Part shown: piece by piece, positions 44,588-63,972 of the stretch
Layout: each line of letters opens with the position of its first letter
Position numbering within the stretch: the stretch's first letter is position 1
Origin: Acidimicrobiales bacterium
Lineage (GTDB): Bacteria > Actinomycetota > Acidimicrobiia > Acidimicrobiales > Aldehydirespiratoraceae
Assembly: GCA_963422655.1 (NCBI GenBank)
Contig: OY730440.1
Location: 2,041,442 to 2,105,441 of the forward strand
Length of the DNA stretch: 64,000 nt
Direction of reading: 5' to 3'
The notes under the pieces: generated by a model
The model's input: only the letters and a program-made list of their open reading frames with translations
What the model was told of the DNA's origin: nothing
Database searches by the model: none
Program-made: the position numbers and the translations under genes

Positions 44588-44590
44588 TCG

Positions 44591-46591: not shown

Positions 46592-46664
46592 TGTAGTGGT
46601 ATGGATCCGAACCGATGGTTAGAGTTGACCGACAGTCCGTTCGGAGCATCTGAAGGGAAGGGTC

Positions 46665-47414
46665 TTGACGATCACCATCACTACGTCTGCGCTGTCCTTC
46701 GACGGTATAGGAATGATCTTCCCCGACGGCACCGAGGCGTTGCGCAACGTCAGCTTCGCCGTCGACAAGGGCGAGTTCGTCACCGTGGTCGGTCCTTCGG
46801 GGTGCGGTAAGTCTACTTTGTTGCGCATTGCCTCGGGTCTGCTGGAACCCACCGCGGGCACCGTCACCGTCGACCGGGATCGTCTCGGTTACGTGTTTCA
46901 AGACGCCACGCTGCTGCCGTGGCGAACCGTTCGCAAGAACGTGGAGTTGCTGGCCGAGCTCCACAACGTCAGCGGGGACGAGCGGCGCCGCTTGGCCACC
47001 GAAGCCATCGAGCTGGTCGGTTTGGCCGGTTTCGAGGACCACTACCCGAAGTCCCTGTCGGGCGGCATGAAGATGAGGGCTTCGCTGGCCCGCACTCTCA
47101 CCCTCAAGCCTCCGGTGTTCCTGTTCGACGAGCCCTTCGGAGCCGTCGACCAGATCACCCGCGAGCATCTCAATGAGGAGACCCAGCAGCTTTTCCGGTC
47201 CGAGGGTTTTGCCGGTCTGTTCATCACTCATTCCATCGCCGAAGCGGTGTTCATGAGCACCAGGGTGCTGGTGATGTCGGATCGGCCGGGCCGGATCGTG
47301 GACTCCTTCGACGTACCGTTCGGTTACCCGCGCCAACCCGATCTGAGATTCGACCCGGAGTTCGCCCTGCTCAGCGGTGAGGTTTCCCACGCCCTACGAG
47401 GTTCTTTCGCATGA
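46665..47414 (+). CDS. ABC transporter ATP-binding protein (NitT/TauT family)
   Basis: Walker A GPSGCGKST, signature LSGGMKMR, Walker B LFDEPF. Confidence 0.9.
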   Translation: MTITITTSALSFDGIGMIFPDGTEALRNVSFAVDKGEFVTVVGPSGCGKSTLLRIASGLLEPTAGTVTVDRDRLGYVFQDATLLPWRTVRKNVELLAELHNVSGDERRRLATEAIELVGLAGFEDHYPKSLSGGMKMRASLARTLTLKPPVFLFDEPFGAVDQITREHLNEETQQLFRSEGFAGLFITHSIAEAVFMSTRVLVMSDRPGRIVDSFDVPFGYPRQPDLRFDPEFALLSGEVSHALRGSFA

Positions 47415-48337: not shown

Positions 48338-48466
48338 GGGTGGTGCTGCTGAGGGCAAAGGCGATCGCACCGGTTTGTTTCTGTGCCGGGCTGCGTAAAT
48401 TCTAGTAAATTCTACCAGTGCCGATATCGGCCCAAATTTATCCATCTCTTGGAGGAGGGACATTAC

Positions 48467-49726: not shown

Positions 49727-49790
49727 CCGAACTTTCTCAGAGAGAAACCGATTCCGGGGGCCGGTGCGTCAGCGCCGGCCCCCGGGCCGT

Positions 49791-50750
49791 TCAGGCGCTG
49801 GAGAGGTCGCTCCGAGCAGGAGCAGCGCCGGTCGGGCCCTCTTGGGGGCATACGTAAGGCTCGTAGGAGCCGTCGATTCTGGCCGTCAGGAAGTCTCCGG
49901 CCGTGACCGGCTCGTAACGGCAGGGCCGGGCGGCGGTGACGCAACTCGGGATGGGATCGACCACGGTGCCCGGATCGGGGTTGACGAAGAATGGGACCGA
50001 GAACCGGTCTCGATCTGGTGCTCCCACCACCCGATGCGGGGTTGATCGGTACCGGTCGTTGGTCCAGCGGGCCAACATGTCGCCCAAGTTCACTACCAGG
50101 CTCCCGAGCGGTGCCGAGACCGGCGTCCAGTCGCCGCCCAGGGGCTTTACCTCGAGGCCCGGTACCCCGTCGGTGGCCAGCAGGGTGATGGCGCCGTAGT
50201 CGGTGTGGGGGGTGGACAGAACCGGCAACGATCCGTCGTCGTCCATCGGCGTGACTGGGTAGTGCACGAGCCGGAGCCGGCATTGGGGGTCGGTCATGCG
50301 GGCCGCGAAGAAGCTCGGATCGGCGTCGAGGGCTATGGCCAGAGCCCGCAGGATCGTTGCCGCGGTGGCGAGGGCAGCCCGCTGATAGGCGCGCACCGCT
50401 GGAGCGAACCCGGAGATGTCCGGCCAGGTGATCTCGTCGGCCAGCCCGATGTCGATGTGTTCGAAAATGTTGCTGGCTCGCTCGGGATCCAGTGTTTGCC
50501 CGGTAAGCGGCACGAACCCGTACCGGTTGACCCGGGGTACTTGTTCTTTGCGGTCCTGGGGTAGGGCGAAGAAGGTCCGTGACGCTTCGAACACGGCATC
50601 GAGCCGGTCACCGAGACCGTGTCCGGTGACGCCGAAGAAGCCCGTATCCGTGCAGGCGTCATCGATGCCTTCGATGATCATCGAGGCTTCGGGCCCGGTC
50701 GGTTCGTTGCGCAGTGCGGTGATATCGATGATGGGCAGGGTGATAGTCAC
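49791..50750 (-). CDS. 2-oxoglutarate/Fe(II)-dependent oxygenase (isopenicillin-N-synthase-like)
   Basis: PHTDYGAITLLATD, GLEV, VVNLGDMLARWTNDRYRSTPHRV. Confidence 0.8.
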   Translation of the reverse strand: MTITLPIIDITALRNEPTGPEASMIIEGIDDACTDTGFFGVTGHGLGDRLDAVFEASRTFFALPQDRKEQVPRVNRYGFVPLTGQTLDPERASNIFEHIDIGLADEITWPDISGFAPAVRAYQRAALATAATILRALAIALDADPSFFAARMTDPQCRLRLVHYPVTPMDDDGSLPVLSTPHTDYGAITLLATDGVPGLEVKPLGGDWTPVSAPLGSLVVNLGDMLARWTNDRYRSTPHRVVGAPDRDRFSVPFFVNPDPGTVVDPIPSCVTAARPCRYEPVTAGDFLTARIDGSYEPYVCPQEGPTGAAPARSDLSSA

Positions 50751-52039
50751 GCGCCGGCCTCCGCAATTGCATCGTCATACCCGGTACCGATCCGAGACCG
50801 ACACCTCTCGACCGGTTCTATCCCCACGGTGGTGTGCTGGTTGGTGGAGGCGACGAGTCGGCCTTGGTGGTAGGTGCGGCGGGACATTGCGGCGTCGGCG
50901 ACGGCGGCTCGGACCGATGTGGCGTCGATGGCGGTGAGCTCGGCGGGGTCGCCGGGTTCGAAGTTGACCGGGGCCAGGCCCATGGCTCGGCGGGCGTTGT
51001 TGGAGACCATGTCGTAGGCGGTTTCGGGGGTTTGGTGGGCGGCCATGACCAGCAGGGCGGCGGTTTCCAGCGGGTCGCTGCGACCTACCGGATTGTAGGG
51101 GTCTTGCACGTTGTCGGCTCCGGCTGCTACCAGGGTGCCGGCGTGGCGCAGGGTGTCGATGGCGGTGAGGCCGCGGGGGGTGGCGGTGGGGTGGTGGCGT
51201 CCTTGGAGGTAGAGGTTGGTTTGGGGCAAGGTGATCACTGCGATCTCGGCTTCGGCTACTTCGGCTGCCACGGCGGCTTGGACGTCGGGTGGTTGCATGC
51301 CCAAGCTCACGCAGTGGCTGGCCGCGACCGGGTGAGCGAAACCGGTTTCGTGTACTTGGCGGGCCAGGCTGCGTAACGTCAACACGCCGGGGTCGAGCAT
51401 CTCATCGACATGAAGATCGATGCCCAAACCAGCGTCGGCGGCCGCATCCAAGGCATAGGCGATGAGGCCGGGGCCGTCAGGATCGAGATGAGGGCAGCCG
51501 CCCACCAAATCCACCCCCGCCTCCAGAGCCGCGGCCAGGGCCCGGCGGTTGGCAATGCTGTCAGAGCCGGTCAAGGGAAAGCCGCTCAAAGCCACGATCT
51601 GGACATCCATCAGCCCGGCGAAACGGTCGGCGGCCTCCCGCACTGCGGCTACCGCCACGGTTGTCGGATCTCCCAGGGCGTTGACGTGAGATCTCACCGC
51701 CGTCACCCCGTGCACCAGCAGCAGTTCCAAGGCCTGGCTTGCTCGGTTCACGATGTTCTCGTAGGTGAAGAGACCGGCCGATGCCGCTGCTGACCAGGCT
51801 TCGATGGCGCCGAGCAGGTCGCCGGTGGGGTTACCGACATCGGTGGCGGTGAGTGCCTTGTCGAGATGGGAGTGAGGCTCGGCCAAGGCGGGGAGAAGTA
51901 ACCAGCCCGCCAAGTCGTCGATCTCGGCCCCTTCGGGGGCGGGCGACCCGGCGGCGGCCACTGCGGTGATCAGGCCGTCGTCGGTGTGGACATCAACGGC
52001 TCGGCCGTCGGCCAGCCGGGCGTTGCGTAGCACTCTCAC
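50747..52039 (-). CDS. Amidohydrolase, cytosine-deaminase-like (paralog 1)
   Basis: LPALAEPHSHLDKA (HxH metal site). 430 aa. The stop overlaps the start of the oxygenase gene. Confidence 0.8.
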   Translation of the reverse strand: MRVLRNARLADGRAVDVHTDDGLITAVAAAGSPAPEGAEIDDLAGWLLLPALAEPHSHLDKALTATDVGNPTGDLLGAIEAWSAAASAGLFTYENIVNRASQALELLLVHGVTAVRSHVNALGDPTTVAVAAVREAADRFAGLMDVQIVALSGFPLTGSDSIANRRALAAALEAGVDLVGGCPHLDPDGPGLIAYALDAAADAGLGIDLHVDEMLDPGVLTLRSLARQVHETGFAHPVAASHCVSLGMQPPDVQAAVAAEVAEAEIAVITLPQTNLYLQGRHHPTATPRGLTAIDTLRHAGTLVAAGADNVQDPYNPVGRSDPLETAALLVMAAHQTPETAYDMVSNNARRAMGLAPVNFEPGDPAELTAIDATSVRAAVADAAMSRRTYHQGRLVASTNQHTTVGIEPVERCRSRIGTGYDDAIAEAGA

Positions 52040-52058
52040 GGGTATCGCTCCTCGATGA

Positions 52059-53288
52059 TCAACCGAGTATCCGGGTGTGCTGGTTGGTGGAGGCGACGAG
52101 TCGGCCTTGGTGGTAGGTGCGGCGGGACATTGCGGCGTCGGCGACGGCGGCTCGGACCGATGTGGCGTCGATGGCGGTGAGCTCGGCGGGGTCGCCGGGT
52201 TCGAAGTTGACCGGGGCCAGGCCCATGGCTCGGCGGGCGTTGTTGGAGACCATGTCGTAGGCGGTTTCGGGGGTTTGGTGGGCGGCCATGACCAGCAGGG
52301 CGGCGGTTTCCAGCGGGTCGCTGCGACCTACCGGATTGTAGGGGTCTTGCACGTTGTCGGCTCCGGCTGCTACCAGGGTGCCGGCGTGGCGCAGGGTGTC
52401 GATGGCGGTGAGGCCGCGGGGGGTGGCGGTGGGGTGGTGGCGTCCTTGGAGGTAGAGGTTGGTTTGGGGCAAGGTGATCACTGCGATCTCGGCTTCGGCT
52501 ACTTCGGCTGCCACGGCGGCTTGGACGTCGGGTGGTTGCATGCCCAAGCTCACGCAGTGGCTGGCCGCGACCGGGTGAGCGAAACCGGTTTCGTGTACTT
52601 GGCGGGCCAGGCTGCGTAACGTCAACACGCCGGGGTCGAGCATCTCATCGACATGAAGATCGATGCCCAAACCAGCGTCGGCGGCCGCATCCAAGGCGAC
52701 GCCGAGGGCGGCGGCGGGATCCGGGTCGAGTTGGGGGCAGCCGCCCACCAAGTCCACCCCCGCCTCCAGAGCCGCGGCCAGAACGGACCGGCTCTCGGCC
52801 CCCTTCGGGCCGCTGATCGATCCCCCGGTCAGGGCCACGATCTGGAGATCGACCAGACCGGCAAACCGGCGGCGCACCTCATGCAAGACCCGTATACCGA
52901 TGACACCGGTCTCGGGCACCGTGTTCACATGGGAGCGGATAGCCGTGGCTCCGTGTCCGACCAGTAACCTCACTGCCGCCGACGCTCTCTCGGCCAGGTT
53001 TTCCTCGCTGAATCGGCCCGCGGTCACCGCTGCTGACCAGGCTTCGATGGCGCCGAGCAGGTCGCCGGTGGGGTTACCGACATCGGTGGCGGTGAGGGCT
53101 TTGTCGAGATGGGCGTGAGGCTCGGCCAAGGCGGGGAGAAGCAACCAGCCCGCTAAGTCGTCGATCTCGGCCCCTTCGGGGGCCGGCGACCCGGCGGCGG
53201 CCACTGCGGTGATCAGGCCGTCGTCGATGTGAACATCAACGGCTCGGCCGTCGGCTAGCCGGGCGTTACCCAGAACTCGCATCGTCAC
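52059..53288 (-). CDS. Amidohydrolase, cytosine-deaminase-like (paralog 2)
   Basis: LPALAEPHAHLDKA. The 3' 624 nt are identical to paralog 1. Confidence 0.8.
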   Translation of the reverse strand: MTMRVLGNARLADGRAVDVHIDDGLITAVAAAGSPAPEGAEIDDLAGWLLLPALAEPHAHLDKALTATDVGNPTGDLLGAIEAWSAAVTAGRFSEENLAERASAAVRLLVGHGATAIRSHVNTVPETGVIGIRVLHEVRRRFAGLVDLQIVALTGGSISGPKGAESRSVLAAALEAGVDLVGGCPQLDPDPAAALGVALDAAADAGLGIDLHVDEMLDPGVLTLRSLARQVHETGFAHPVAASHCVSLGMQPPDVQAAVAAEVAEAEIAVITLPQTNLYLQGRHHPTATPRGLTAIDTLRHAGTLVAAGADNVQDPYNPVGRSDPLETAALLVMAAHQTPETAYDMVSNNARRAMGLAPVNFEPGDPAELTAIDATSVRAAVADAAMSRRTYHQGRLVASTNQHTRILG

Positions 53289-53362
53289 AGGCTAGACCCC
53301 ACCGCCAAACCCCTAGTGGCGTGTCGTGTCACCCTGGCCCCGGCGTCGTGGCTGGACCGGAT

Positions 53363-53459
53363 CAAGGGCTGGTTCTCGATGCTTGATTCAGATGGCGACC
53401 GGTTCGGGTAAGACTTTCACAGCCACCAACGTCTCGTACCGGCTCCTTCGCCACGTCGG
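53363..53459 (+). pseudogene. 97-nt relic of a type I restriction hsdR gene (helicase motif I region)
   Basis: Encodes LIQMATGSGKTFTATNVSYRLLRHVGARRILF. It matches 60386-60482 of the intact hsdR with 7 mismatches in 97 nt (my count). No homology on either side. Confidence 0.75.
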
Positions 53460-53901
53460 TGCACGCAGGATTCTGTTTCGTCTATTACGGTCTTTTGAGT
53501 TGCTTCTCCCCCGGGCAACCCGCACCCCGCTCGGAGTGCGGGACCAGGTTGTGGCGGGCCATAGCAAAGATTGTCGCGGCGTGCCAGCAAAACAGATCCG
53601 CAGGGTCCCGCGGGTTGAAGAGCAAGTCCCGGGCCAGCGCCGCTCGGGCATCGCCGGTGAGGCGATCGACTGTCCAACCAGCGACCGGAACCAGTTGCCT
53701 TCCACCGAGGACACCGCCTCCACCGGCCCGGCGACTGCTTCGCCGCCGGACGCGATTACTGGTTGCGCGCGACATCCGGGCGGGGCGTGCAACCAGGCCG
53801 TGCGGCGCCAGTTGTCCGCAGCTTCGCCAAGTCGAGGGTGGTGGATCAGACCGTGTGTTTCCATCAACGGACCGTGTGCTCCCATCAAATCGTTCGGGTG
53901 G

Positions 53902-53929
53902 TTGATTCTCGCCGGCAGGTTGCTATATT
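53902..53929 (+). promoter_or_regulatory. Candidate sigma-70-type promoter of the island operon
   Basis: TTGATT-N16-TATATT, about 60 nt upstream of ATG 53990, at the point where the sequence becomes AT-rich. Confidence 0.35.
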
Positions 53930-53989
53930 TCCCCGTATGATTATCTGACGGGAATTGGCGACAAGTGATAGATATTCGAGCGGAGTTGG

Positions 53990-54256
53990 ATGATGCAGGT
54001 CAGAGAAGCGGTGGAATCAGCAGCAGCAGCGGTTCTGTGCGTCAGTGTGGAGGACCTTCGACTCAACGATGCAAAGGGTGGGTTACGGTTCGATTCGCCC
54101 CAGGCCGAAGCAATCGTGGCCCGCGTCGAGGGGTTGCTCGGCACGGGTCCCCTGGCTGAGGTCAAAGATCTGCAAACCAGTGAGCCAGCGACGCTTGAGA
54201 CGTTGACGGAACTGCTCGAAACCAAGCGCACTGGTAGCGAGGCGATGACGACATGA
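53990..54256 (+). CDS. Acyl/peptidyl carrier protein-like small protein
   Basis: 88 aa. The layout parallels ACP: VREAVESAAAAVLCVSVEDLRLNDAKGGLRFDSPQAEAIVARVEGLLG. The DS motif at the start of helix 2 would be the phosphopantetheine serine. Confidence 0.55.
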   Translation: MMQVREAVESAAAAVLCVSVEDLRLNDAKGGLRFDSPQAEAIVARVEGLLGTGPLAEVKDLQTSEPATLETLTELLETKRTGSEAMTT

Positions 54257-55038
54257 TGTCGATCGTTGCGGATAGCGCCCTAGAGGCGTGGGCGGCCGCC
54301 GTTTGGGAGATCTCCCGAAAATCTGACCGAGAGGTTGTTCATTCGATTGTTTCGTTCCCCTGCGATACGACTCTTGGCCCCGAACACGAGCAGGTGAGCC
54401 AGATGTTGACGGATGCTGGTGCGTGGGATGTCAAACAGGTTGCGGACACGATCTTTCCGCAGTCTCTGTATCGCCCCGAGGCCGAGGAACCAGCTAAGGC
54501 ACTTTTCGAGAACTGGAACTATGCGCGGCAAGTCAACAGACGCCGCAAAGGCCAGTCCATCACCTACTTCGACAGGCTGACTCACTACCCGAATAGCACT
54601 GGCGATTTCAACCAGCTCCAATGCCAGTTGGAGAAGCTTCGTTCAGAGCTTGCGGCAAGAGGCCCTTATCGAGCGATCTACGAGTTGGGGCTGACCGGTG
54701 AGGCTGAACTGCGTCTCATGATCCCAGGAGTGGACCGACCTCGACGCAGTTTCCCGTGTCTGAGCCACGTGAGCCTGACATTACGTAAGAAAACACTTCA
54801 TCTGATGGCCCAGTACCGATATCAGTACATGATACGCAAGGCGCTGGGTAACTATCTTGGCCTCAGTCGACTGCTCGCGTTCTTTGTGAATGAGCTCGGA
54901 TTGACCGCGGGCAGGGTCAGCGTCACTGCTGCGTATGCACGAATCGACGCGAAAAAGTTGGGTGGCATCAAGAGATGGAGAACGTTCGCTGAAAGTCTGA
55001 AGACTATGGAGCCAACAGCCTTGGAGCAACAGAAATGA
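54253..55038 (+). CDS. Thymidylate synthase / pyrimidine hydroxymethylase-fold protein (divergent)
   Basis: [66 protein letters not shown] parallels ThyA [80 protein letters not shown] parallels DRTGTGTLSIFG. 4-nt overlaps with both neighbours. Confidence 0.45.
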   Translation: [261 protein letters not shown]

Positions 55039-55484
55039 ACAGACCTGAGCATCTTGAGCGATGGCTGGGGTCTGCATTGCAAGCCCTTACCACCGATTTC
55101 GATGACGTGATCCCTGGAATCGATGTGGTCAGTGTCCCGGACTTCGAGCATCTGATCAGAATTGGAGGTCAGCAATTCCTGACGCGCCAGTTCACCAGTG
55201 CCGAGCTGTCCGAATGTGGTAGCAACGGTGAGCGCCTAGCCGCTCGTTTCGCAGCGAAGGAAGCCACGGTGAAGGTGCTGAGGACCGGATTTCGCAGAGG
55301 TATTGCAGCTCGCCATATCGAAATCAAAACGAACAAATCCGGAATGCCGCACGTGATGCTGCACGGACCCGCGGCTGAAAGAGCCGAACAGATGTCGCTG
55401 AGGTTAGTAAATGTGACACTGACTCACGATGCAGATCTGGCTGCAGCAGCGGCGATTGGACGGCGCGAAAATGAGACCGTGTGA
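55035..55484 (+). CDS. AcpS-type 4'-phosphopantetheinyl transferase
   Basis: GIDVVSVPDFEHL, FTSAELSEC, ERLAARFAAKEATVKVL, IEIKTNKSGMPHV, VTLTHDADLAAAAAI. All AcpS motifs appear in the expected order. Confidence 0.8.
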   Translation: MNRPEHLERWLGSALQALTTDFDDVIPGIDVVSVPDFEHLIRIGGQQFLTRQFTSAELSECGSNGERLAARFAAKEATVKVLRTGFRRGIAARHIEIKTNKSGMPHVMLHGPAAERAEQMSLRLVNVTLTHDADLAAAAAIGRRENETV

Positions 55485-55505
55485 TAGCAGGAAGGACACA
55501 AGGAG

Positions 55506-55880
55506 ATGACCGAGAAGACCATGCCAGAAGTCGGCACAGAACAAGCCGCGATTGGTGAGCGGTTAAAGGAAGCGCGCACCTATCTCGGATTGACCCAGGA
55601 ACTAGTGGCCGAGGAGTTGTCGATTCCCCGGCCAGCGGTATCCCAGATCGAGCGTGGAGGAAGACGCGTGTCAGGCATAGAACTCAAGAAGCTGGCAACT
55701 CTCTATGGTCGGCCCGTGGGTTGGTTCTTCGGTGATATAGAGGGGACGGTTGGGGATACCGGAGAGCAGACCGACGCGCTGTTCCGCGCTATGAACGATC
55801 TTGATGAATCTGATGTGGAAGAGGTTGTGCGGTTCGCCGAGTTCCTGCGTAGTCGCGCCGAGACGTCACCATGGCAGTGA
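55506..55880 (+). CDS. XRE-family helix-turn-helix transcriptional regulator
   Basis: IGERLKEARTYLGLTQELVAEELSIPRPAVSQIERGGRRVSGIELKKLATLYG. aaggag SD. Confidence 0.85.
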   Translation: MTEKTMPEVGTEQAAIGERLKEARTYLGLTQELVAEELSIPRPAVSQIERGGRRVSGIELKKLATLYGRPVGWFFGDIEGTVGDTGEQTDALFRAMNDLDESDVEEVVRFAEFLRSRAETSPWQ

Positions 55881-57007
55881 GCCAGAATCGGCGCCACCTT
55901 GCCGAGGCTAATCGTCAAGGTCGTCTCGAGGCTGAGCGTCTCCGCAACCGGTTGGGGCTCAACACCCAGACCTGGATCGATGTTTTTGAAATCATCGAAT
56001 CGCAGCCCAATCTGGAATTACTCTTTCGCCCTCTCAAAAAACTGTACGGCTTTTACTTGCAACGCCAAGGGTCGTCGGGGATTGTGATCAATGCTGATCA
56101 CCCATCAGCCTTGAGGAGGTTTACCGCGGCGCACGAACTCGGTCACCACGTTCTGAGCCATGGAGAATCAGTCGATCTGAGCCATGGAGAATCAGTCGAT
56201 CTGAGCCATGGAGAATCAGTCGATGAGAATGGACACATAAATACCCCTCTCGGGATCGATGACGAGGGGGTCGACGGCATAGTCAGTGCTCGTTCAATCC
56301 AGAACGCAGGAAACCTCGTCAAAGAAGCCGCTGCCCAGGGGTTCGCTGGCTCGTTCTTGATGCCGTTGGCGCCGGTGAACCGGTATCTACGCGATCACAC
56401 CGGATCCACACGAGGAGGCATACTCCCCGCCGATCAGGTCTATAAGTTGGCTGTGGAGTTCGGGGCGAGCTTTGGCGCGACATGCACACAACTGGCTGCG
56501 CTGAATAAGATCGACTGGGAATACCGCGCCCAGTTACTTCAAGCCGGTGCTCTCAAAGTTGCAACTGATATCGGTTACGGAACTTCGCCCCGCCACCGCC
56601 GAGCTGATGTGGTGGTGGGTGATCACTTGCACGGCGCTCAAGTGATGGAACATGACGCAGAATTGGTCGTAGAGATTGTCGAAACACCAACGACGGGGTG
56701 TGTTTGGACGCTCGACGAAATTCCGAGGCAGCTTGAAGTCATCGCCGACAGCGTAGTCGCGGATGAACATGACGGGGAGCGGCTGGGTGGGAGCCAGACC
56801 CGCCATATACGTTTTGGCGTTGTCAAGCCTGGCGATGCAGTGGTGCGATTCGGATTGAGGGCGGCGTGGCAACCGGAATCCGAACCTCTGCAATCGCGCG
56901 TCGTGGAGGTCTCGGTACGTGAGCCTGTGTTCAATTCTGGCTGTTCATTGAGTCGTAGGACGCTTCGCCGGAGAGTGGCGATGGTCCATGCGATGTCGGT
57001 GATGTGA
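55871..57007 (+). CDS. ImmA/IrrE-family zinc metallopeptidase fused to a C-terminal chagasin-like (I42) cysteine-peptidase inhibitor domain
   Basis: HExxH site FTAAHELGHHVL. The C-terminal 110 aa parallel chagasin: ETPTTGCVW (NPTTGFAW), RLGGSQTRHIRFGVVKPGDAVVRFGLRAAW (LLGAGGTEHFHVTVKAAGTHAVNLTYMRPW). 10-nt overlap with the XRE gene. Confidence 0.7.
   Translation: MAVSQNRRHLAEANRQGRLEAERLRNRLGLNTQTWIDVFEIIESQPNLELLFRPLKKLYGFYLQRQGSSGIVINADHPSALRRFTAAHELGHHVLSHGESVDLSHGESVDLSHGESVDENGHINTPLGIDDEGVDGIVSARSIQNAGNLVKEAAAQGFAGSFLMPLAPVNRYLRDHTGSTRGGILPADQVYKLAVEFGASFGATCTQLAALNKIDWEYRAQLLQAGALKVATDIGYGTSPRHRRADVVVGDHLHGAQVMEHDAELVVEIVETPTTGCVWTLDEIPRQLEVIADSVVADEHDGERLGGSQTRHIRFGVVKPGDAVVRFGLRAAWQPESEPLQSRVVEVSVREPVFNSGCSLSRRTLRRRVAMVHAMSVM
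56153..56224 (+). repeat. Perfect 3 x 24-nt in-frame tandem repeat (ctgagccatggagaatcagtcgat) encoding LSHGESVD x3
   Basis: Read directly. It starts 2 codons after the HELGH motif. Confidence 0.95.
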
Positions 57008-57681
57008 CCGAACGAGTGTTGAATTTAGCACGGTCACTGCCGCCGGTACGTTCGCAGGGCCAGCGTGGTACATGCGTGGCGTTTGTTCTCACGTGTGGAC
57101 ATGAACGGGCGCTTTACCAGGGACCGAACGGCGAGCCTCTCAGCGAACAAGCACTGCATTGGGCCACGAAACAAATCGACCAACAGCCAGGTGACGCAAC
57201 AACTCTCTCTTGCGGAGCCCAGGCCTTGGCTTCGTCTGGACAACCACTCTCGTCGGTTTGGCCCTACGAGCCCAGCATTGATCCGGGACCTCCTCCTCCA
57301 GACTGTTTCGACACCGTCTGGTCCGCGGAAGCTGAGCCTGTCGGCGAGACTGGAGTGGCAGCACTTCGCGATATGTTGAGCAACTCACTTATCGTCTGCA
57401 CCGGGATCCCACTTTGGCCGGAGTTCACGGCAGCGACAGGTACTGCTTCAGCGATCATCCCCGTCACTCCTTTCGCTCAGACACAGAAGCCATCTCATGC
57501 GATAGCGCTTGTGGGTCACGATCCGATGCGAGGGGCCGTACTGGTTCGCAATTCGTGGGGTGAGAGTTGGGGCACTAACGGCTATTGTTGGGTAGAGGAC
57601 CAGCTCGTTGCCTGCTGCACATTGATGTGGGCGGTGATACAGGTCGTTCAAAGCCATGAGAAGCGATATGGATCTGAGTGA
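57004..57681 (+). CDS. Papain-family (C1) cysteine peptidase, no signal peptide
   Basis: VRSQGQRGTCVAFV (Gln/Cys), PSHAIALVGHD (His), VLVRNSWGESWGTNGYCWV (Asn/Trp). The GTG start overlaps the upstream stop (GTGA). Confidence 0.8.
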   Translation: MTERVLNLARSLPPVRSQGQRGTCVAFVLTCGHERALYQGPNGEPLSEQALHWATKQIDQQPGDATTLSCGAQALASSGQPLSSVWPYEPSIDPGPPPPDCFDTVWSAEAEPVGETGVAALRDMLSNSLIVCTGIPLWPEFTAATGTASAIIPVTPFAQTQKPSHAIALVGHDPMRGAVLVRNSWGESWGTNGYCWVEDQLVACCTLMWAVIQVVQSHEKRYGSE

Positions 57682-58618
57682 ATATCAACTGAAAGCGCAA
57701 GCCACCGACCAGCGGCTCCCCATGCCTGATGGTAATGAAGAGCCTCTTGATGACGACCACATTGTAGTTCCGTTGCTCGGACTGGTGGGTGAGGTGGGTG
57801 CGCTGCATACCGAGTACAAGAAGCTGCTGCGTGACGGAAGTGCCTACAGCGGCTTCGAACGCCACCTCGACGAAGAACTCGGTGATATCTTGTGGTATGT
57901 CGCTAACCTGGCATCAAAGTTCGGCCGCGATCTAAATGCCATCGCTAAAGAGAATCTTGCCAAAGTTCGCGATCGATTCCCCTCTGAAGATGCAGTTGAT
58001 AACTTTCAGTTTCCTGATCAAGACTTTCCACGCGAGCAGCAACTTCCACGTGAATTTGAGGTGTTCTTTCACACCGAAAGGCCATCAATTGATGGGCAGC
58101 CTCCGAAGGTTCAGTGTTACTGGAACGATGCCAAGTTCGGGAACGAGCTCGACGATAACGCCGTTGATGATAACGGGTACCGTTATCATGACGCATTCCA
58201 TCTCGCCTACGTTGTCTATCTCGGATGGTCACCAGTACTGCGGAAGTGGTTCGCCAGAAAACGCGACGAAACAACTCACCGTATTAGAGATGGTGGCCGG
58301 GCCAAGGTATACGAAGAAGCCATCGCAGTGCTTGTCTACAGCCACGCGTCCGAAGTGGGGTGGTTTGCTAAACCAAACCAGGAAGTTGACTTCTCCGTCC
58401 TGAAACTCATAAAGCAACTGACAGATGGTCTCGAGGAACTCAGGAATGTGACGTTGCACCGTTGGGCGGAGGCGATCAAAGCCGGATTTGCAGTCTGGAA
58501 TCAGCTCCGTGCGAATACCGGTGGTGTAGTGGTTGGAGATGCCACAGTGCCGAAGCTTGAGTATCGGCCATTGCCGTCTGACTGGCATCCGCCCTTGAAT
58601 GCCCATTTCGAGCCGTAG
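57656..58618 (+). CDS. MazG-like all-alpha NTP pyrophosphohydrolase with a 200-aa C-terminal extension of unknown function
   Basis: LLGLVGEVGALHTEYKKLLRDG ... DEELGDILWYVANLASKFGRDLNAIAKENLAKVRDRF (EExxE/D metal motifs). Overlaps the peptidase gene. An alternative start is ATG 57668. Confidence 0.65.
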   Translation: MRSDMDLSEYQLKAQATDQRLPMPDGNEEPLDDDHIVVPLLGLVGEVGALHTEYKKLLRDGSAYSGFERHLDEELGDILWYVANLASKFGRDLNAIAKENLAKVRDRFPSEDAVDNFQFPDQDFPREQQLPREFEVFFHTERPSIDGQPPKVQCYWNDAKFGNELDDNAVDDNGYRYHDAFHLAYVVYLGWSPVLRKWFARKRDETTHRIRDGGRAKVYEEAIAVLVYSHASEVGWFAKPNQEVDFSVLKLIKQLTDGLEELRNVTLHRWAEAIKAGFAVWNQLRANTGGVVVGDATVPKLEYRPLPSDWHPPLNAHFEP

Positions 58619-59690
58619 AGGGCAGAGGATCGACGGTCCACAACCTGAGGGTATCCGACTGACACACCGTGGGTTCGTTCGCAGTCATTGGTAGATTCCA
58701 TTTGGGTGGGTAGCCCAACACGAGAGGCTCAGACTTTGGTACGAAGGATTGCTTGATACGGCGTGGACCGCCAGTGTCAATTTCGGGATGTGCAACTCGC
58801 GCGTATTTGTCCACCTCACAGAACAGGTTCTGGATATCGATCAGGTGCAGTTGCCGGCCCCACAGGTCCTTGAAGTTTTTATCAGCTAGATACGGGGATG
58901 CCTCGTCTGCCATCGCAGCGATGAGATCGTGGGGATCAAGGCTACCGGTATCAGTGAAGCATTTCTGGATACCGCGTAGCGCACCTGGGCCAGCAACGAC
59001 GAAGTCCATTTCGTCGAAATCGAAGTGGGGGCTGTAGTTGAGATCGATAGCATATTGAAACGCCAGAAACGGACCGAAGGATGGAATGCAGGTCAGTTGC
59101 TCGTAGAGATCTTTGAGGGTCCTGGCCTGCGTTAGTTGCCGTAGAGTGCCTTCTCGTACGAGATGTGCGAGAAGCGCAAGATGGTTCCGGTGCTTTCGGT
59201 TCTCGCCCATGGTCGGCGAAGGCATGATGTATGCGGCTGAGTAAATACGATTGCCAGCCTTGAGGCGCCGGTCGAGGGCTCTGCTGTACCATCCTGGATC
59301 AAAAGTTGCGAGAGTCGGCTGGCCGACCGTTTCAACCAGGTAGTTCCAAGTTTCGATACGGTTGAATATCTTGAACAACAGAACTCGAAAGACCGTGTCG
59401 TCAGCGTCACGCTCATCGTCGTAGATGACGTGTTGCAGGAGGTATTGACTCACTCGATCAGAAGCACGGTACGCGTTCGTAAACCGATAGTTCGCAAGTA
59501 CGGGGTCGTTGGTCCATGGCCTTGGAAGGCCAGACACACGCCGGTTGAACATTGCTTGGCGTTCGGCAGCCAGATACCAGTAGCTCCAGAACACCTCGGT
59601 TACGGCCACCTGACGGTCCCGCAGACGGATCCGTGGAGGACGGTCCGATTGGCTCAGACGAGGCATGGCACCGGGATGATCTTGGCACAA
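58476..59690 (-). CDS. Protein resembling the phage thymidine-hypermodification family (5-hmdU DNA kinase helical / aGPT-pyrophosphorylase-like, often annotated as nucleotide kinase domain-containing protein)
   Basis: N-terminal pattern FWSYWYLAAERQAMFNRRVSGLPRPWTNDPVLANYRFTNAYRASDRVSQYLL, recalled from that family. Not verified by search. The 3' 143 nt overlap the convergent MazG-like gene. Confidence 0.45.
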   Translation of the reverse strand: MCQDHPGAMPRLSQSDRPPRIRLRDRQVAVTEVFWSYWYLAAERQAMFNRRVSGLPRPWTNDPVLANYRFTNAYRASDRVSQYLLQHVIYDDERDADDTVFRVLLFKIFNRIETWNYLVETVGQPTLATFDPGWYSRALDRRLKAGNRIYSAAYIMPSPTMGENRKHRNHLALLAHLVREGTLRQLTQARTLKDLYEQLTCIPSFGPFLAFQYAIDLNYSPHFDFDEMDFVVAGPGALRGIQKCFTDTGSLDPHDLIAAMADEASPYLADKNFKDLWGRQLHLIDIQNLFCEVDKYARVAHPEIDTGGPRRIKQSFVPKSEPLVLGYPPKWNLPMTANEPTVCQSDTLRLWTVDPLPSTARNGHSRADASQTAMADTQASALWHLQPLHHRYSHGADSRLQIRL

Positions 59691-59785
59691 GAACAGACGC
59701 GATGCAGAACCGGGCCACTAGTTCAGCCGTAAGCGCCGGTACGGGCCGCTGCCAGGAGCCGATCAGACCAACGAGTGCCAGACTA

Positions 59786-62665
59786 ATGGCCATGGCTGAT
59801 GAGCCTTCGGACTATCTCGCTCCCGAGCAGCATGCGCGCATGAAGATCGACGCCCAACTCAAGGCGTGCGGATGGGTGGTGCAGGACTACCGGCATGGCG
59901 CTGTGAGTGCCGCGCCCGGTGTCGCCGTGCGTGAGGTGCCCACTGGGGCTGGCCCCGCCGATTACGTGCTGTTCGTGGACGCCCAGGCGGTGGGGGTGAT
60001 CGAAGCCAAGAAGCGGGGCACGACGCTCACCGGCGTGGAACGCCAGACGCACAGATACCGGGCAGCCTTTCCCGATGAGCTGCCAGCTTTTTTCGTTGAG
60101 GGGGCTCTGCCCTTCGGCTACGAATCAACCGGCACCGAGACCCGGTTCACCTGCGGGCTCGATCCGGAGCCGACGTCACGGCGAGTGTTCACGTTTCATC
60201 GACCCAAAACGCTCGCCCGCTGGCACGATGATCACATCCGTCTAGGCGGCCACGCCACCTCCAGGACCAGCTTCCGGGCCGGGCTGGGTCTTCTGCCCGA
60301 TCTGGATCCGGCTGGGCTCTGGGCAGCCCAAGCCGAAGCCATCCGGAATCTCGAGCGGTCGTTGAAAGCGAACCGGGCCCGGGCTTTGATCCAAATGGCG
60401 ACCGGCTCGGGTAAGACTTTCACAGTCGCCAACATCTCGTACCGGCTCCTTCGCCACGCCGGTGCACGCAGGATTCTGTTTCTGGTGGACCGGGCCAACC
60501 TGGCCACACAAACGATCCGTGAGCTCGAGGGTTTCGCCACCCCCGACGACGGCCGTAAGTTCACCGAGCTCTACAACGCCCGCCAGCTCACCTCCTCGGG
60601 GCTCGACATGGTTGACGAGGCAGCCACCAAAGTGCATGTGGCGACCATTCAGCGGATCTACTCGATCTTGCGGGGCGAGGACCTTAGCGACGATCTCGAC
60701 GAACGGTCGGCTTTCGACATGGCCCCCGAACGCCCCGTGGAAGTGCTCTACAACCCGGCTGTACCCATCGAGAGCTACGACGTGATCATCATCGACGAAT
60801 GCCACCGGTCGATCTATGGGGTATGGCGCCAGGTGCTGGAGTATTTTGACGCCTTCCTCATCGGGCTTACGGCCACGCCGGGCAAGCAGACATTCGGTTT
60901 CTTCGACCAGAACCTGGTGATGGAGTACGGCCACGAACAGGCCGTTGCCGACCGGGTGAACGTCGACTTCGATGTGTTTCGCATTCGTACCGAGATCTCC
61001 GAGTCCGGCAGCACCGTTGATGCCGGGTTGGTCACCGAGTTCCGTGACCGGGAGACCCGCAAGCAGCGCTTCGAACGTATCGACACCGACTTGGACTACG
61101 AGGCCTCCGACCTCGACCGTAAGGTGGTGGCTCCCGATCAGATCCGCACAATCGTTAGCGCTTTGCGCGACTCGCTGCCGAAAATGTTTCCGGATCGCAT
61201 CGTGGGAGACAACGGGCGGCTCGAACACATACCCAAGACGTTGATATACGCCAAAGACGACAGCCATGCCGACGACATCGTGCAGATCGTCCGTGAAGAG
61301 TTCGGCCTGTCGAGTTTGGGTGCGGTGAAGATCACCTACAAGACGTTCGAGTCCGGTCACAAACCCGAGGAGCTGCTTCAACAGTTCCGAACCGGCTACG
61401 AGACTCGGGTCGCGGTCACGGTTGACATGATCGCCACCGGCACCGATGTGCGGCCCATTGAGTGTGTCGTGTTCATGCGGATGGTGCGCAGCCGCACCTT
61501 CTTTGAGCAGATGAAGGGTCGTGGAGTGCGAGTGATGAGCTCCGAAGACCTGCGCGGTGTCACTCCTGACGCCACCGCCAAAGACCATTTCGTGATCGTT
61601 GATGCGGTCGGCGTTACCGAAACCATGCTGGCCGACACAGTTCCGCTGGAGCGCTGCCATAGCGTCGGGTTCGACCGGCTTCTCAACCAGATCGGCCTCG
61701 GCAGTACCGACGAAGATGTCGTCTCATCGGTGGCGTCCCGGCTGGCCCGACTCGACAAGCGCATCACCGGACCGGACCGAGCCGAGCTCGAAGAAGTGGC
61801 AGGCATCAGTCTCGGTGAGCTGTCTCACCAACTCGTCGATGCCCTTGACCCTGATCGGCATCACGCCGAGGCTATAAAGGTCTGTGGCACTGATATGCCT
61901 ACTGGCGCCGAAGTCGCGGCGGCCCGTAAACGACTAGTGAAAGCAGCGCTGGCGCCCATCGCGGGTAACTCTGCGTGTCGTGAGAAGCTGGTCGAGATTC
62001 GTCGTAGCTACGAACAGGTCATCGACGCCGCCTCCAAGGACCGGGTCATATCAGGCCGATTCTCCAGGGACGCCACCGACCGGGCCCGCGGCATCGTCGA
62101 TTCCTTCCGCCAGTACATAGAAGACAACAAGGACGAGATCACCGCTCTTCAGGTTCTCTACAGCCAGCCCTATAGCGGTGGGCTCAGCTTCGCTGACATC
62201 CGGGAGTTGGCGAACTCGATCAAACGGTCACCTCGCAACTGGACCACCGAGGACCTCTGGGAGGCTTACGAGACTCTTGACGCCAGCAAGGTTCGGGGGT
62301 CGGGTCATCGAGTCAACACCGATCTCGTCAGCCTGGTTCGTTACGCGTTGGGCAGCGCTGATGAGCTTGTCTCTTACCCTGATCTCGTAGACGAGCGCTT
62401 TGACGCGTGGCTGTTGCAGCAGACCCAATCCCCCCCCCCCCCCCCCCCCCCCGGAAGCGAAAGACTCGGGGGAGGGCTTTCCAGTGAACAGATTGACTAT
62501 CTCCGCCTAGTCAAGGATCACATCGCCGCAAGTCTCGGGATCGAGGCTCGCGATTTACAGAACCTGCCGTTCAGTCAGCACGGTGGACTAGGCCGAGCCC
62601 GCCAGCTCTTCGGCCGCGGTCTTGAACAATTACTAGACGAGCTCACTCAGGCGCTGGCCGCATGA
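59786..62665 (+). CDS. hsdR: Type I restriction enzyme R subunit
   Basis: N-terminal PD-(D/E)xK nuclease ADYVLF...VIEAKK. Helicase motifs IQMATGSGKT, IIIDECHRS, LTATP, TVDMIATGTDV. C-terminal EcoEI_R_C-like domain after the poly-Pro. Start taken at ATG 59786; the ORF is open from 59552. Confidence 0.9.
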   Translation: MAMADEPSDYLAPEQHARMKIDAQLKACGWVVQDYRHGAVSAAPGVAVREVPTGAGPADYVLFVDAQAVGVIEAKKRGTTLTGVERQTHRYRAAFPDELPAFFVEGALPFGYESTGTETRFTCGLDPEPTSRRVFTFHRPKTLARWHDDHIRLGGHATSRTSFRAGLGLLPDLDPAGLWAAQAEAIRNLERSLKANRARALIQMATGSGKTFTVANISYRLLRHAGARRILFLVDRANLATQTIRELEGFATPDDGRKFTELYNARQLTSSGLDMVDEAATKVHVATIQRIYSILRGEDLSDDLDERSAFDMAPERPVEVLYNPAVPIESYDVIIIDECHRSIYGVWRQVLEYFDAFLIGLTATPGKQTFGFFDQNLVMEYGHEQAVADRVNVDFDVFRIRTEISESGSTVDAGLVTEFRDRETRKQRFERIDTDLDYEASDLDRKVVAPDQIRTIVSALRDSLPKMFPDRIVGDNGRLEHIPKTLIYAKDDSHADDIVQIVREEFGLSSLGAVKITYKTFESGHKPEELLQQFRTGYETRVAVTVDMIATGTDVRPIECVVFMRMVRSRTFFEQMKGRGVRVMSSEDLRGVTPDATAKDHFVIVDAVGVTETMLADTVPLERCHSVGFDRLLNQIGLGSTDEDVVSSVASRLARLDKRITGPDRAELEEVAGISLGELSHQLVDALDPDRHHAEAIKVCGTDMPTGAEVAAARKRLVKAALAPIAGNSACREKLVEIRRSYEQVIDAASKDRVISGRFSRDATDRARGIVDSFRQYIEDNKDEITALQVLYSQPYSGGLSFADIRELANSIKRSPRNWTTEDLWEAYETLDASKVRGSGHRVNTDLVSLVRYALGSADELVSYPDLVDERFDAWLLQQTQSPPPPPPPGSERLGGGLSSEQIDYLRLVKDHIAASLGIEARDLQNLPFSQHGGLGRARQLFGRGLEQLLDELTQALAA
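62430..62452 (+). repeat. 23-nt poly-C homopolymer inside hsdR (encodes S-P7)
   Basis: Counted directly: c at 62430 plus cccccccccc cccccccccc cc. Confidence 0.95.
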
Positions 62666-63972
62666 GTGAAGATCTTCCACCAGGCTGGGCGTGGGCCGAA
62701 TTGGGTTGCATAGCCGACACGCAGCTTGGAAAGACATTGAATCGTTCCAAACAGACGGGTGAAGCGACTACCCCTTACCTACGGAACCTCAACATCAGAT
62801 GGGGGAGCTTTGATCTCAATGCTGTCAACAGGATGGATATCTTTCCTGAGGAATCTGAACAATTTACAGTTCAAAATGGTGATCTGCTTCTGACTGAGGG
62901 TGGTGAACCAGGCCGGTGTGCAGTGTGGCGGCTCGAGGAGAGATTCGGGTTTCAGAATGCCCTACACCGAATTCGTCCCGCTGGTCGTATTCGCCCTGAA
63001 TTTCTCCAATGTCAGTTTGAATGGCTGACCAAGACAGGACAATTAGCTCACCTCTTTTCAGGTGTCACGATCAAGCATTTTTCTCAGTCAAAACTGCGAT
63101 CAGTCAAGATCCGACTTCCGCCGCTTGCGGAGCAGGGGCGGATTGTTCCTGCTATCGAAGAGCACTTCTCACGGCTCGACGCCGCAGAAACGGCTGCTCA
63201 GACCGCTCTCACCAAGCTGGACATGCTCCGGCGAGCGGTGCTAGCCGCCGCCTTCTCCGGCCGCCACACCGACGACTGGAAGTGGGCCGAATTGGGTGAG
63301 ATTTGCACGGAGATTAAGGGACAGATCTCCCCCAAATCCGGATCCATCTACGATCTATATAGCGTCCCAGCATTCCCAACCGGGCTTCCCGAACGAATTG
63401 ATGGTGACGAGATCAAGAGTGGAAAGCGTGAAATCCAGCCGGGCAATCTTCTGATCTGTAAGATTAACCCTCGCATCAACCGTGTTTGGATAGTCGGTGA
63501 CTCCGAAGGACTACCTCAGATTGCTTCAACGGAGTATCTAGTTATCCGCCCGCATGAACCCAATGTAGGTGCCTTCATTCGATGGTATCTATCGTCTCCA
63601 TCGTTCAGGAAATGGATCGTACTATCGGTGGAGGGTGTCACTGGCTCTCACACACGAGCCAAATCTAGGCTCATCCTTAAGCAGCCAATTCCCCTTCCGC
63701 CGCTTGCGGAGCAACAGCGGATTGTTGCTGCTATCGAAGAGCACTTTTCCCGAATAGATGCCGCCGAGTCAGCCTTGCAGAAGCTGCTCGAAAAGGTAGC
63801 GGATTTGCGTCGGTCGATACTCGCTGCTGCGTTCTCGGGCCAGCTCGTTCCCCAAGATCCCGACGACGAGCCAGCGTCGGTCCTACTCGAACGAATCGTT
63901 GCTGAGCGGCCGAAGCGTCGCACCCGGCGAGCCGCACCCGCCGCCTCATTCGGCGCAAGGAAGCAGTCATGA
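62662..63972 (+). CDS. hsdS: Type I restriction-modification specificity subunit
   Basis: Two target-recognition domains separated by, and followed by, conserved helices LPPLAEQGRIVPAIEEHFSRLDAAE... and LPPLAEQQRIVAAIEEHFSRIDAAE.... ATGA overlap with hsdR. Confidence 0.9.
   Translation: MSEDLPPGWAWAELGCIADTQLGKTLNRSKQTGEATTPYLRNLNIRWGSFDLNAVNRMDIFPEESEQFTVQNGDLLLTEGGEPGRCAVWRLEERFGFQNALHRIRPAGRIRPEFLQCQFEWLTKTGQLAHLFSGVTIKHFSQSKLRSVKIRLPPLAEQGRIVPAIEEHFSRLDAAETAAQTALTKLDMLRRAVLAAAFSGRHTDDWKWAELGEICTEIKGQISPKSGSIYDLYSVPAFPTGLPERIDGDEIKSGKREIQPGNLLICKINPRINRVWIVGDSEGLPQIASTEYLVIRPHEPNVGAFIRWYLSSPSFRKWIVLSVEGVTGSHTRAKSRLILKQPIPLPPLAEQQRIVAAIEEHFSRIDAAESALQKLLEKVADLRRSILAAAFSGQLVPQDPDDEPASVLLERIVAERPKRRTRRAAPAASFGARKQS

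Follow-up and report, generated by a model that had tools for sequence, protein, structure and literature searches.

Bacterial systems built from the enzymes of phage thymidine hypermodification form an emerging class in which DS-4 is the sole validated example. This system (DefensePredictor, working name NTTI; E. coli NZ_QOYB01000018, 32107-36002; Science 2026) is composed of a thymidylate synthase, a dNMP kinase, an HMUDK_hel protein, a TIR protein and Nmad2, and it protects E. coli from phage (PMC13092281). MazG, MazG_C and aGPT-Pplase domains are listed by DefensePredictor as predicted and unvalidated, with Burroughs et al. 2015 being cited for them (PMC13092281). Here, an island of eight genes (G1 to G8, positions 53990-59690) is described that lies on a stretch of 64,000 nucleotides of an Acidimicrobiales bacterium (contig OY730440.1), this whole stretch being termed the window. 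The island encodes a carrier protein (G1), a thymidylate synthase (TS)-fold enzyme (G2), a 4'-phosphopantetheinyl transferase (PPTase, G3), a helix-turn-helix (HTH) protein (G4), an M78 protease fused to an I42 inhibitor domain (G5), a C1 cysteine peptidase (G6), a MazG-MazG_C protein (G7) and an HMUDK_hel protein (G8). It appears to represent an undescribed system of the same class as DS-4. We read it as a horizontally mobile, conserved system that provides inducible defence against phages or other mobile elements by re-using the chemistry of phage thymidine hypermodification, and give this reading an even chance of being correct.

DS-4 is the closest validated system. Both are multigenic and encode an HMUDK_hel protein and a TS-fold enzyme, and comparison of G8 with the HMUDK_hel protein of DS-4 (DS-4C, WP_087900470.1) using BLASTP gave 25% identity (E 5e-31), with the Cys-Glu motif included. 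However, the thymidylate synthase of DS-4 is a canonical PF00303 protein that is not orthologous to G2 (hhalign probability 0.9%, not significant). Furthermore, its dNMP kinase, TIR protein and Nmad2 are not found among the eight window proteins, while DS-4 is without a carrier protein, PPTase, HTH/M78 pair, I42 domain, C1 peptidase and MazG_C. In Candidatus Poriferisodalis (locus L095), genes for TIR and Nmad2 proteins like those of DS-4 adjoin a copy of the present system, with Nmad2, a ThsB-type TIR, TIR_2 and LD_cluster2 situated directly upstream of it (5349-8565), an arrangement that suggests modular exchange between the present system and DS-4-type systems. LD_cluster2 also precedes HMUDK_hel in locus L093.

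The thymidine hypermodification pathways of phages M6, ViI, PaMx11 and PhiW-14 also resemble the window system (Lee et al. 2018 and 2021, PMC5889632, PMC8989533). Shared features are a TS-fold enzyme, in the window predicted to modify C5, a paralogue of the HMUDK_hel family (M6 gp55) and an enzyme of the glycosylase-like Cys-Glu family acting on 5-substituted uracil in DNA. In contrast to these pathways, the window was found to contain neither an ADDT transferase (PF18724; G8 matches only PF18723) nor a pyridoxal phosphate enzyme. The window system is moreover cellular, and adds to the phage repertoire the carrier with its PPTase, a switch resembling CapH/CapP and a caged protease.

CapH/CapP, ImmR/ImmA and DdrO/IrrE are related repressor/protease pairs. 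As with CapH/CapP of CBASS and other defence operons, a gene for an XRE HTH protein (G4) precedes one for an M78 metalloprotease with HEXXH (G5) in an operon of the defence type; in the window, however, the operon encloses the pair instead of following it, and the C-terminal part of G5 differs from that of capP. Pairs of chagasin/ICP inhibitors and papain-type peptidases are found in bacteria and protists, and here too an I42 domain with a TPTTG-x-W loop stands beside a C1A peptidase with its full tetrad; separate I42 and C1 gene pairs were also identified among distant metagenome matches (L112, L120 and L156). The window differs in that inhibitor and peptidase are both cytoplasmic, that a signalling metalloprotease carries the inhibitor as a covalently fused domain, and that in the metagenome loci examined this fusion together with C1 was seen only inside the present system. 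Lastly, nucleotide-depletion defences include dCTP deaminase and dGTPase. Comparable to these is the dNTP-hydrolysing MazG, or a DCD-family protein in sister loci, although the NTPase of the window is one of six core genes and not a stand-alone effector.

An earlier note, made from the letters of this DNA alone, had stated that no named defence or modification system with this combination of domains was known to its author. Beyond the regulator pair, both PADLOC and the searchable literature were blank in this regard, with the qualification that a related validated system, DS-4, now exists. Using PADLOC v2, only G4 and G5 were matched, by models of the regulator type (capH, capP, RmrA, control protein); no match was obtained for the remaining six genes, and no system model covers the six- to eight-gene set. 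No description of a carrier protein/PPTase or of an M78-chagasin/C1 pair in such a system was found in the literature search, a mention in Iyer 2013 or Burroughs 2015 not being excluded.

Conservation and architecture of the gene set

A word-indexed search for relatives of G2 returned only 48 proteins. Searching with a hidden Markov model identified 2019 representatives of 50%-identity clusters at E <= 1e-3 and 681 at E <= 1e-30 (of 1.84e9 searched), and divergent copies that escape word-based searches exist. A scan of 185,579 species genomes yielded 398 relatives as opposed to two among the 2.9 million contigs of a viral collection, which shows the system to be cellular. The two viral-collection contigs (L091, 52.9 kb, and L092, 48.1 kb, both from IMG/VR) carry one copy of the six-gene form and one of the proteobacterial type described below.

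The eight proteins were mapped with jackhmmer on 80 genome loci, supplemented by nine neighbourhoods that were looked up and read by hand. The gene set was found to recur in Actinomycetota, Chloroflexota, Pseudomonadota, Acidobacteriota and others. A census was restricted to the 47 G2 loci with at least 6 kb of sequence on both sides. Here the HTH gene (G4) and the M78 domain of G5 were present at every locus, followed by HMUDK_hel (46/47), the carrier (41/47) and MazG-MazG_C (40/47), while the I42 domain of G5 was identified at 24, the PPTase at 22 and the C1 peptidase at 21 of these loci. The value for the carrier is explained by a small protein beside an Sfp-type PPTase in proteobacterial loci, which could not be demonstrated to be a carrier (hhalign E 0.04). 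The system accordingly has a core of six genes, encoding the carrier, the TS-fold enzyme, the HTH repressor, the M78 protease, MazG-MazG_C and HMUDK_hel, and two optional add-ons, both of which are present in the window: a dedicated PPTase, and a papain-type peptidase with a chagasin-type inhibitor fused to the M78 protease.

The architecture of the window (G1 G2 G3 G4 G5 G6 G7 G8) is shared by loci of Acidimicrobiia, Solirubrobacterales, Pseudonocardiales, Chloroflexota and others. A minimal form of approximately 4.8 kb (G7 G1 G4 G5 G2 G8), without PPTase, I42 and C1, occurs in Micromonospora, Actinoplanes, Nocardia and Mycolicibacterium. In the proteobacterial/acidobacterial type, an Sfp-type PPTase and the small protein are followed by G4 G5 G6 G2 G7 G8. 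Fusions between modules were identified in Acidimicrobiia, in which HMUDK_hel is joined to the carrier (476-480 aa) and the TS-like enzyme to AcpS (433-488 aa). Examples are locus L094 (9001-11729, with a 476-aa HMUDK_hel::carrier and a 433-aa TS-like::ACPS protein), L077 (8370-11110) and L078 (20-1812), and many HMUDK_hel proteins of 466-490 aa are probably the same carrier fusion. Through these fusions, a functional link is established between the carrier and G8 and between the PPTase and G2.

At two loci the slot of MazG-MazG_C is occupied by a gene of the DCD family (dCTP-deaminase-like; L093 15004-15786, L094 13906-14655), which hints that the role of this slot may be the supply of dUMP or the depletion of dCTP. 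The possibility that G7 and G8 form an independent two-gene module was considered and rejected, as the closest homologues of G8 accompany the system even where MazG_C is absent or replaced by DCD; G8 is thus part of the core, while the NTPase is exchangeable. A sister variant (L006 7947-13557 and L007 1636-7405) keeps the carrier, TS-like enzyme, AcpS, HTH and M78 genes, with genes for a uracil-DNA-glycosylase-family protein, a radical-SAM/SPASM protein and a thymidylate-kinase-like P-loop protein in place of C1, MazG_C and HMUDK_hel. Its radical-SAM and P-loop kinase genes recall those of phage hypermodification clusters, and the locus adjoins a type I restriction-modification (R-M) system.

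Should the genes not co-occur in other genomes, the earlier note would have taken them for a chance juxtaposition; they were instead found to travel together across several phyla. That three unrelated modules came together by accident in a junk-rich island would agree with a gene order that varies by lineage and with modules that can be swapped. Against such an accident stand the near-perfect co-occurrence across phyla, the translational coupling in the window and two kinds of inter-module fusion. In view of the census and the fusions, this explanation is regarded as effectively refuted.

Encoded proteins and their predicted chemistry

The domains that the earlier note had read from motifs in the eight proteins were all recovered, in six proteins with Pfam and in G1 and G2 through profile and structure searches, with NCBIfam and PHROGs in agreement. 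For G2, a sub-threshold match was obtained to the archaeal thymidylate synthase model TIGR03283 (E 4.5e-9). The AlphaFold2 (AF2) model of G2 (predicted local distance difference test, pLDDT, 87.8) was compared with known structures using Foldseek, which returned the phage dCMP hydroxylase AfhB (E 3.6e-10), MilA, which is a CMP hydroxymethylase, and many thymidylate synthases, with E values of about 1e-10 and probability 1.00 for TS, MilA and AfhB, in addition to phage dCMP hydroxymethylases (E 3.5e-10). The predicted structure places G2 in the thymidylate synthase/dCMP hydroxymethylase superfamily. At the position of the TS nucleophile, Cys169 of the sequence FPCLSH (a P-C-(H/L) motif) was invariant in 31 sequences, and further invariant residues were Tyr188-Arg189 and Gly199-Asn200. 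Arg189 is taken by us to correspond to the phosphate-binding arginine of TS, and Asn200 presumably corresponds to the asparagine that specifies uracil. The fold, catalytic cysteine, putative phosphate-binding arginine and uracil-type asparagine of G2 would be compatible with a dUMP hydroxymethylase.

The window copy of G1 gave no match in Pfam. Its family profile matched acyl carrier proteins of the PDB (best 9ls6, E 1.3e-6), the DS motifs of both falling together in the alignment, and the orthologue of Mycolicibacterium clears the Pfam cut-off for PP-binding (PF00550). The phosphopantetheine-attachment serine is S36, within an 'FDS' motif (D-S motif), and this was the sole invariant residue in an alignment of 26 orthologues. 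These sequence features identify G1 as a carrier protein. The AcpS gene G3, two genes downstream of the carrier gene, matched PF01648 (E 2.3e-12) and TIGR00556 (E 4.7e-21, above its cut-off).

Thiotemplated biosynthesis is characterised by a carrier that has a PPTase of its own, and many of the hosts are actinomycetes. As MilA, an enzyme of mildiomycin biosynthesis, is also among the structural neighbours of G2, the island could be considered a small secondary-metabolite cluster that produces a carrier-borne modified nucleoside or nucleotide as toxin or signal, with MazG for self-protection and the HTH/M78 proteins as regulators. We attach a low probability to this, since in none of the architectures is there a conserved gene for an adenylation, ketosynthase, condensation, acyltransferase or thioesterase function or for an exporter, and the minimal form covers only about 4.8 kb. 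In addition, G8 stems from a glycosylase-like family that acts on DNA, and the loci lie within R-M, Tn7 or integrase islands.

G7 was identified by its match to MazG_C (PF18722, E 6.8e-52, 176 bits against a cut-off of 29.7), described in the literature as a 'predicted nucleotide kinase', and to MazG (PF03819, E 3e-5, 24.6 bits against a cut-off of 22). It also matched phrog_229 (E 8.7e-28) and, weakly, dCTP pyrophosphatase 1.

G8 is a member of the HMUDK_hel family (PF18723, E 3.1e-102), which comprises at least 8000 proteins. Close homologues are named 'alpha-glutamyl/putrescinyl thymine pyrophosphorylase clade 1' by JGI and 'putative DNA base hypermodification protein' or 'nucleotide kinase domain-containing protein' by NCBI. 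The earlier note had seen in G8 a likeness to the 5-hmdU kinase/aGPT-Pplase group; this stands in so far as HMUDK_hel, formerly 'aGPT-Pplase clade 1', is paralogous to it, but G8 is neither the kinase nor the amino-acid:DNA transferase. The conserved domain ends near 58660 and the remaining tail is disordered. Cys283-Glu284 in NLFCEvDKYAR (numbered from the ATG at 59666) and many charged residues were found to be invariant. The best fold match in the PDB for the AF2 model (pLDDT 84) was the 5-PmdU glycinyltransferase gp46 of PaMx11 (E 0.024, probability 0.98), followed by 8-oxoguanine (OGG-type) glycosylases, and two motifs were common to G8 and the phage transferase, FGPFLAFQYAIDL corresponding to FGPWIGFKIADMM and LFCEVDKY to VLCKWKSH. 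In the phage amino-acid:DNA transferase, a cysteine and a nearby glutamate are essential, the cysteine attacking C6 such that an exocyclic methylene forms (PMC8989533); this intermediate accepts amines, hydroxyls and even a thiol, beta-mercaptoethanol (PMC8989533). Judging by the model and the shared motifs, G8 is most plausibly an enzyme that acts on DNA bases with a chemistry related to that of the phage transferase.

Homologues of G8 were identified in ViI-like, M6-like, Microbacterium and Brevibacterium phages. In the M6-like phage BL8, the homologue is the gene following that of the P-loop 5-hmdU DNA kinase and is separate from the amino-acid:DNA transferase (PF18724), and from this position and distinctness it corresponds to gp55 of M6. 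In Brevibacterium phage LuckyBarnes, HMUDK_hel comes after a thymidylate synthase and two glycosyltransferases.

The regulator G4 matched HTH_3 (PF01381, E 3.4e-13) and the PADLOC model capH (E 5.2e-10). G5 matched Peptidase_M78 (PF06114, E 1.3e-11) and capP (E 2.2e-15), the latter over the protease domain only (profile positions 6-155 of 242). Its HEXXH motif at residues 88-92 is invariant, and the residues conserved throughout the family are H88, E89, H92, H97, D102, E152, E271, G276 and W279. The C-terminal part of G5 is a chagasin-type I42 domain (residues 263-343, PF09394, E 5.1e-11, 43.1 bits against a cut-off of 27.2) with the motif TPTTGCVW, while in the six-gene form an unrelated domain is found at this place. 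The likeness of the HTH/M78 pair to CapH/CapP speaks for an operon that is induced and against one that modifies the host genome constitutively.

For G6, a match to PF00112 (E 1.5e-8) was obtained, both catalytic motifs align to cathepsin K, and the tetrad Gln18/Cys24/His165/Asn183 is intact, all four residues being invariant in 23 orthologues. Neither a signal peptide nor a pro-domain was found in G6, which consists of the mature domain only and starts 17 residues before the active-site Gln. G6 and the I42 domain of G5 are both cytoplasmic. Across the 80 loci, I42 and C1 were found to co-vary, with both present in 41 and neither in 37, and the two loci with C1 only being incomplete. A metagenome scan with the C1 peptidase showed its nearest relatives to sit inside this system, and in 80 metagenome loci every M78-I42 fusion observed was accompanied by G2.

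These data bear on the second of two readings in the earlier note, that of an abortive-infection module with a caged protease. The protease and its inhibitor co-vary; present at 21 of the 47 loci, they form an accessory module and not the core effector. A related explanation is that the island is a toxin-antitoxin or abortive-infection module in which the papain-type peptidase kills and I42 serves as antitoxin, the nucleotide enzymes being unrelated or accessory. While the intact tetrad, the lack of a secretion signal and the fusion of the inhibitor to a sensor-type protease in strict co-variation with the peptidase would suit such a role, peptidase and I42 are missing from 22 of the 47 complete loci, which retain all other genes. 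As the M78-I42 and C1 pair was not found outside the context of G2 in the metagenome loci, it is an add-on to the nucleotide system and not the reverse, and we judge the toxin-antitoxin explanation quite improbable.

Layout, context and mobility of the island

Coordinates of the island and its surroundings are given in Table 1. The ORF map agrees with the earlier note in showing seven tightly packed genes on the forward strand, G8 being convergent to them. Overlaps of 4 nt were found for G1/G2, G2/G3 and G5/G6 (the last being GTGA) and of 10 nt for G4/G5, while G6 and G7 overlap by 26 nt, or by 14 nt counted from the second ATG, and G3 and G4 are separated by 21 nt. The convergent overlap of 143 nt between G7 and G8 is due solely to the non-conserved, disordered tail of G8. 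The block was also correctly noted to be AT-richer than its surroundings, with a GC content of 55.7%, whereas the left flank (40000-53300) has 65.9% and the window as a whole 64.4%.

Table 1. Positions in the window of the genes of the island and of adjoining features
Feature	Position	Strand	Description
Direct repeat	53849-53888	+	two 19-nt copies of GACCGTGTGYTYCCATCAA, 21 nt spacing, 5' of the promoter-like site
Promoter-like site	53902-53929	+	TTGATT-16-TATATT, extended TG, about 60 nt 5' of G1
G1	53990-54256	+	88 aa, acyl-carrier-like protein
G2	54253-55038	+	261 aa, thymidylate-synthase-fold enzyme, uncharacterised family
G3	55035-55484	+	149 aa, AcpS-type PPTase
G4	55506-55880	+	124 aa, XRE-type HTH protein, CapH-repressor-like
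G5	55871-57007	+	378 aa, M78 (ImmA/IrrE/CapP-like) zinc protease fused to chagasin-type I42 inhibitor
Tandem repeat	56152-56224	+	perfect 24-nt x 3 inside G5, encodes SHGESVDL x3 directly after HEXXH
G6	57004-57681	+	225 aa, papain-family (C1A) cysteine peptidase
G7	57656-58618	+	320 aa, MazG nucleoside-triphosphate pyrophosphohydrolase domain and MazG_C
G8	58476-59690	-	396-404 aa, HMUDK_hel family
hsdR relic	53383-53479	+	97 nt, 92.8% identical to 60386-60482 of intact hsdR (motif-I region)
hsdR	59786-62665	+	type I R-M; motif I LIQMATGSGKTF, DECH box; context, outside the system
hsdS	62662-63972	+	type I R-M; duplicated HsdS conserved regions; context, outside the system

The borders likewise bear out what had been reported. 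The hsdR relic that forms the left edge of the island is real but very short, and on the right hsdR and hsdS of the type I R-M locus are intact, with hsdM lying beyond the end of the window. An hsdM-like ORF was found in the locus of a relative with approximately 95-97% identity (L010, Acidimicrobiales metagenome-assembled genome OY730477.1), in which 9285-14747 corresponds to window positions 53540-62694 as the same island in the same place; the left hsdR relic is longer there, at approximately 630 nt. The pair of GACCGTGTGYTYCCATCAA repeats is a candidate operator for the HTH protein G4. The promoter-like site was the sole match in 6.6 kb scanned, where 2.6 would be expected by chance; not being statistically enriched, it is suggestive by its position in front of G1 alone. 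Scans of the island for terminators and promoters gave results no better than chance. To the left of the island, two tandem paralogues of 430 and 409 aa are encoded on the reverse strand (50747-52039 and 52059-53288), which we take by eye to be putatively amidohydrolase-like. Their C-terminal residues (approximately 230) are identical and their N-termini nearly so, which indicates a very recent tandem duplication.

Neighbours of the system in the hand-read loci were found to include RE_NgoFVII, Eco57I/XamI, type I R-M, Tn7-like TnsA/B/C/TniQ and integrase genes, as well as a reverse transcriptase, ABC-type ATPases, TIR, Nmad2, LD_cluster2 and large metallophosphatases. These are typical of defence or mobile islands. 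At 15 of 95 loci, a gene resembling hsdM was found no more than 10 kb away. A protein of 716-740 aa with a metallophosphatase domain adjoins the system on an actinobacterial-type metagenome contig (L004 3761-6558) and in Burkholderia lata (L005 1-1388). Metallophosphatases have been newly validated as defence domains (DS-8, DS-9) by DefensePredictor (PMC13092281).

The frequency of R-M genes as neighbours raises the question of whether the system is instead a constitutive epigenetic or anti-restriction system, hypermodifying thymidines of its own host or mobile-element DNA, as phages do, so as to shield it from restriction or label it as self, and working alongside the adjacent type I R-M locus. 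The occurrence of HMUDK_hel and TS-fold enzymes in the hypermodification clusters of phages (LuckyBarnes and the M6-like BL8) and the NCBI family name 'putative DNA base hypermodification protein' would agree with this. It is nevertheless considered unlikely. The CapH/CapP-like pair is universal among the 47 loci, which fits induced rather than housekeeping expression, and the genes conserved with the system include no nuclease that depends on, or is sensitive to, modification. Nucleotide clearing by MazG or DCD and a caged protease are hard to square with a benign mark, and the system is deleted in the near-identical relative L010 with the locus otherwise unchanged.

Proposed function and significance

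The inducible-defence reading can be set out as a series of steps. The operon would be repressed by G4 until, by analogy with CapH/CapP and ImmR/ImmA, the protease of G5 cleaves G4 upon infection or DNA damage. MazG, or the DCD-like protein of sister loci, would then supply or clear pyrimidine nucleotides. The observed fold, cysteine and uracil-type asparagine of G2 are consistent with attack on C6 of dUMP, its presumed substrate, and the installation of a substituent at C5, and the modified nucleotide would enter replicating DNA. G3 would phosphopantetheinylate G1, and G8, linked to the carrier by the fusions, may act together with holo-G1 on the modified base. The resulting adduct would be bulky and keep the invader from being replicated, transcribed or packaged. 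C1 and I42 were observed to occur together; G5 may, with its I42 domain, keep G6 inactive until the peptidase is set free, either to form a second, proteolytic arm or to serve in regulation.

A more specific proposal is that the carrier itself serves as the weapon. G8 would in this case generate, like the phage transferase, an exocyclic 5-methylene on modified uracil in the invading DNA, to which the phosphopantetheine thiol or cargo of holo-G1 adds, resulting in a DNA-protein crosslink or a pantetheine adduct that serves antiviral immunity, with the M78 and papain-type proteases controlling or resolving such adducts. This is rather improbable as it stands; if true, G1 would be the first phosphopantetheinyl carrier protein used in nucleic-acid modification.

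A number of points weigh against the inducible-defence reading, the first being that every step beyond the identity of the domains is an inference. G2 has no match in Pfam, its profile found nothing among PDB sequences, and its TS fold was recovered only through structure prediction and Foldseek; it is also without a recognisable folate-site signature. No P-loop 5-hmdU DNA kinase (PF18748), which the phage pathway needs, was found among the window proteins, the control with BL8 being positive. The fold match of G8 to the phage transferase is weak (E 0.024, TM 0.32-0.42), and with alignment of the G8 profile to the single phage transferase sequence by hhalign not significant, their relation rests on this match and two short motifs. 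M6 gp55, to which G8 corresponds, has been found to be dispensable for in-vitro reconstitution. Furthermore, no enzyme for loading the carrier is conserved in the cluster, and the regulators G4 and G5 are encoded mid-operon.

To these points are added signs of decay. In L010, two segments are deleted. With the one corresponding to window positions 54536-55334, the 3' part of G2 and the 5' part of G3 are lost; with the other, corresponding to 56403-59234, the remainder of G5, the whole of G6 and G7 and the greater part of G8 are missing. The system is thus dispensable and that copy has decayed. In the window, the SHGESVDL repeat triplicates the segment of G5 with the invariant His97 and Asp102, altering the active-site region of the M78 protease, whereas L010 has 48 nt fewer at this place, leaving one copy. 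The triplication may stem from a recent slippage event by which the protease is altered or inactivated; alternatively, it may serve as a contingency switch. The system may therefore be decaying in this lineage.

The two readings in the earlier note, a nucleotide-pool or DNA-base modification pathway and an abortive-infection module, can both still be maintained and probably describe two layers of a single system. The finding exposes a gap in annotation, the family of G2 with its approximately 2000 50%-identity clusters having no Pfam model and the six- to eight-gene system being absent from PADLOC v2. The G8::carrier and TS-like::PPTase fusions lead to a testable hypothesis of carrier-dependent chemistry on C5 of pyrimidines, which could provide new tools for modifying DNA. 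If the system is one of defence, the phosphopantetheinyl carrier and its transferase, as well as a new branch of the TS fold, would be new components of immunity within the sources searched, as would a cytoplasmic papain-type protease caged by a chagasin-type inhibitor and wired to a CapP-like sensor protease. It would also give a function to HMUDK_hel, a family whose phage representative was dispensable in the reconstituted pathway.

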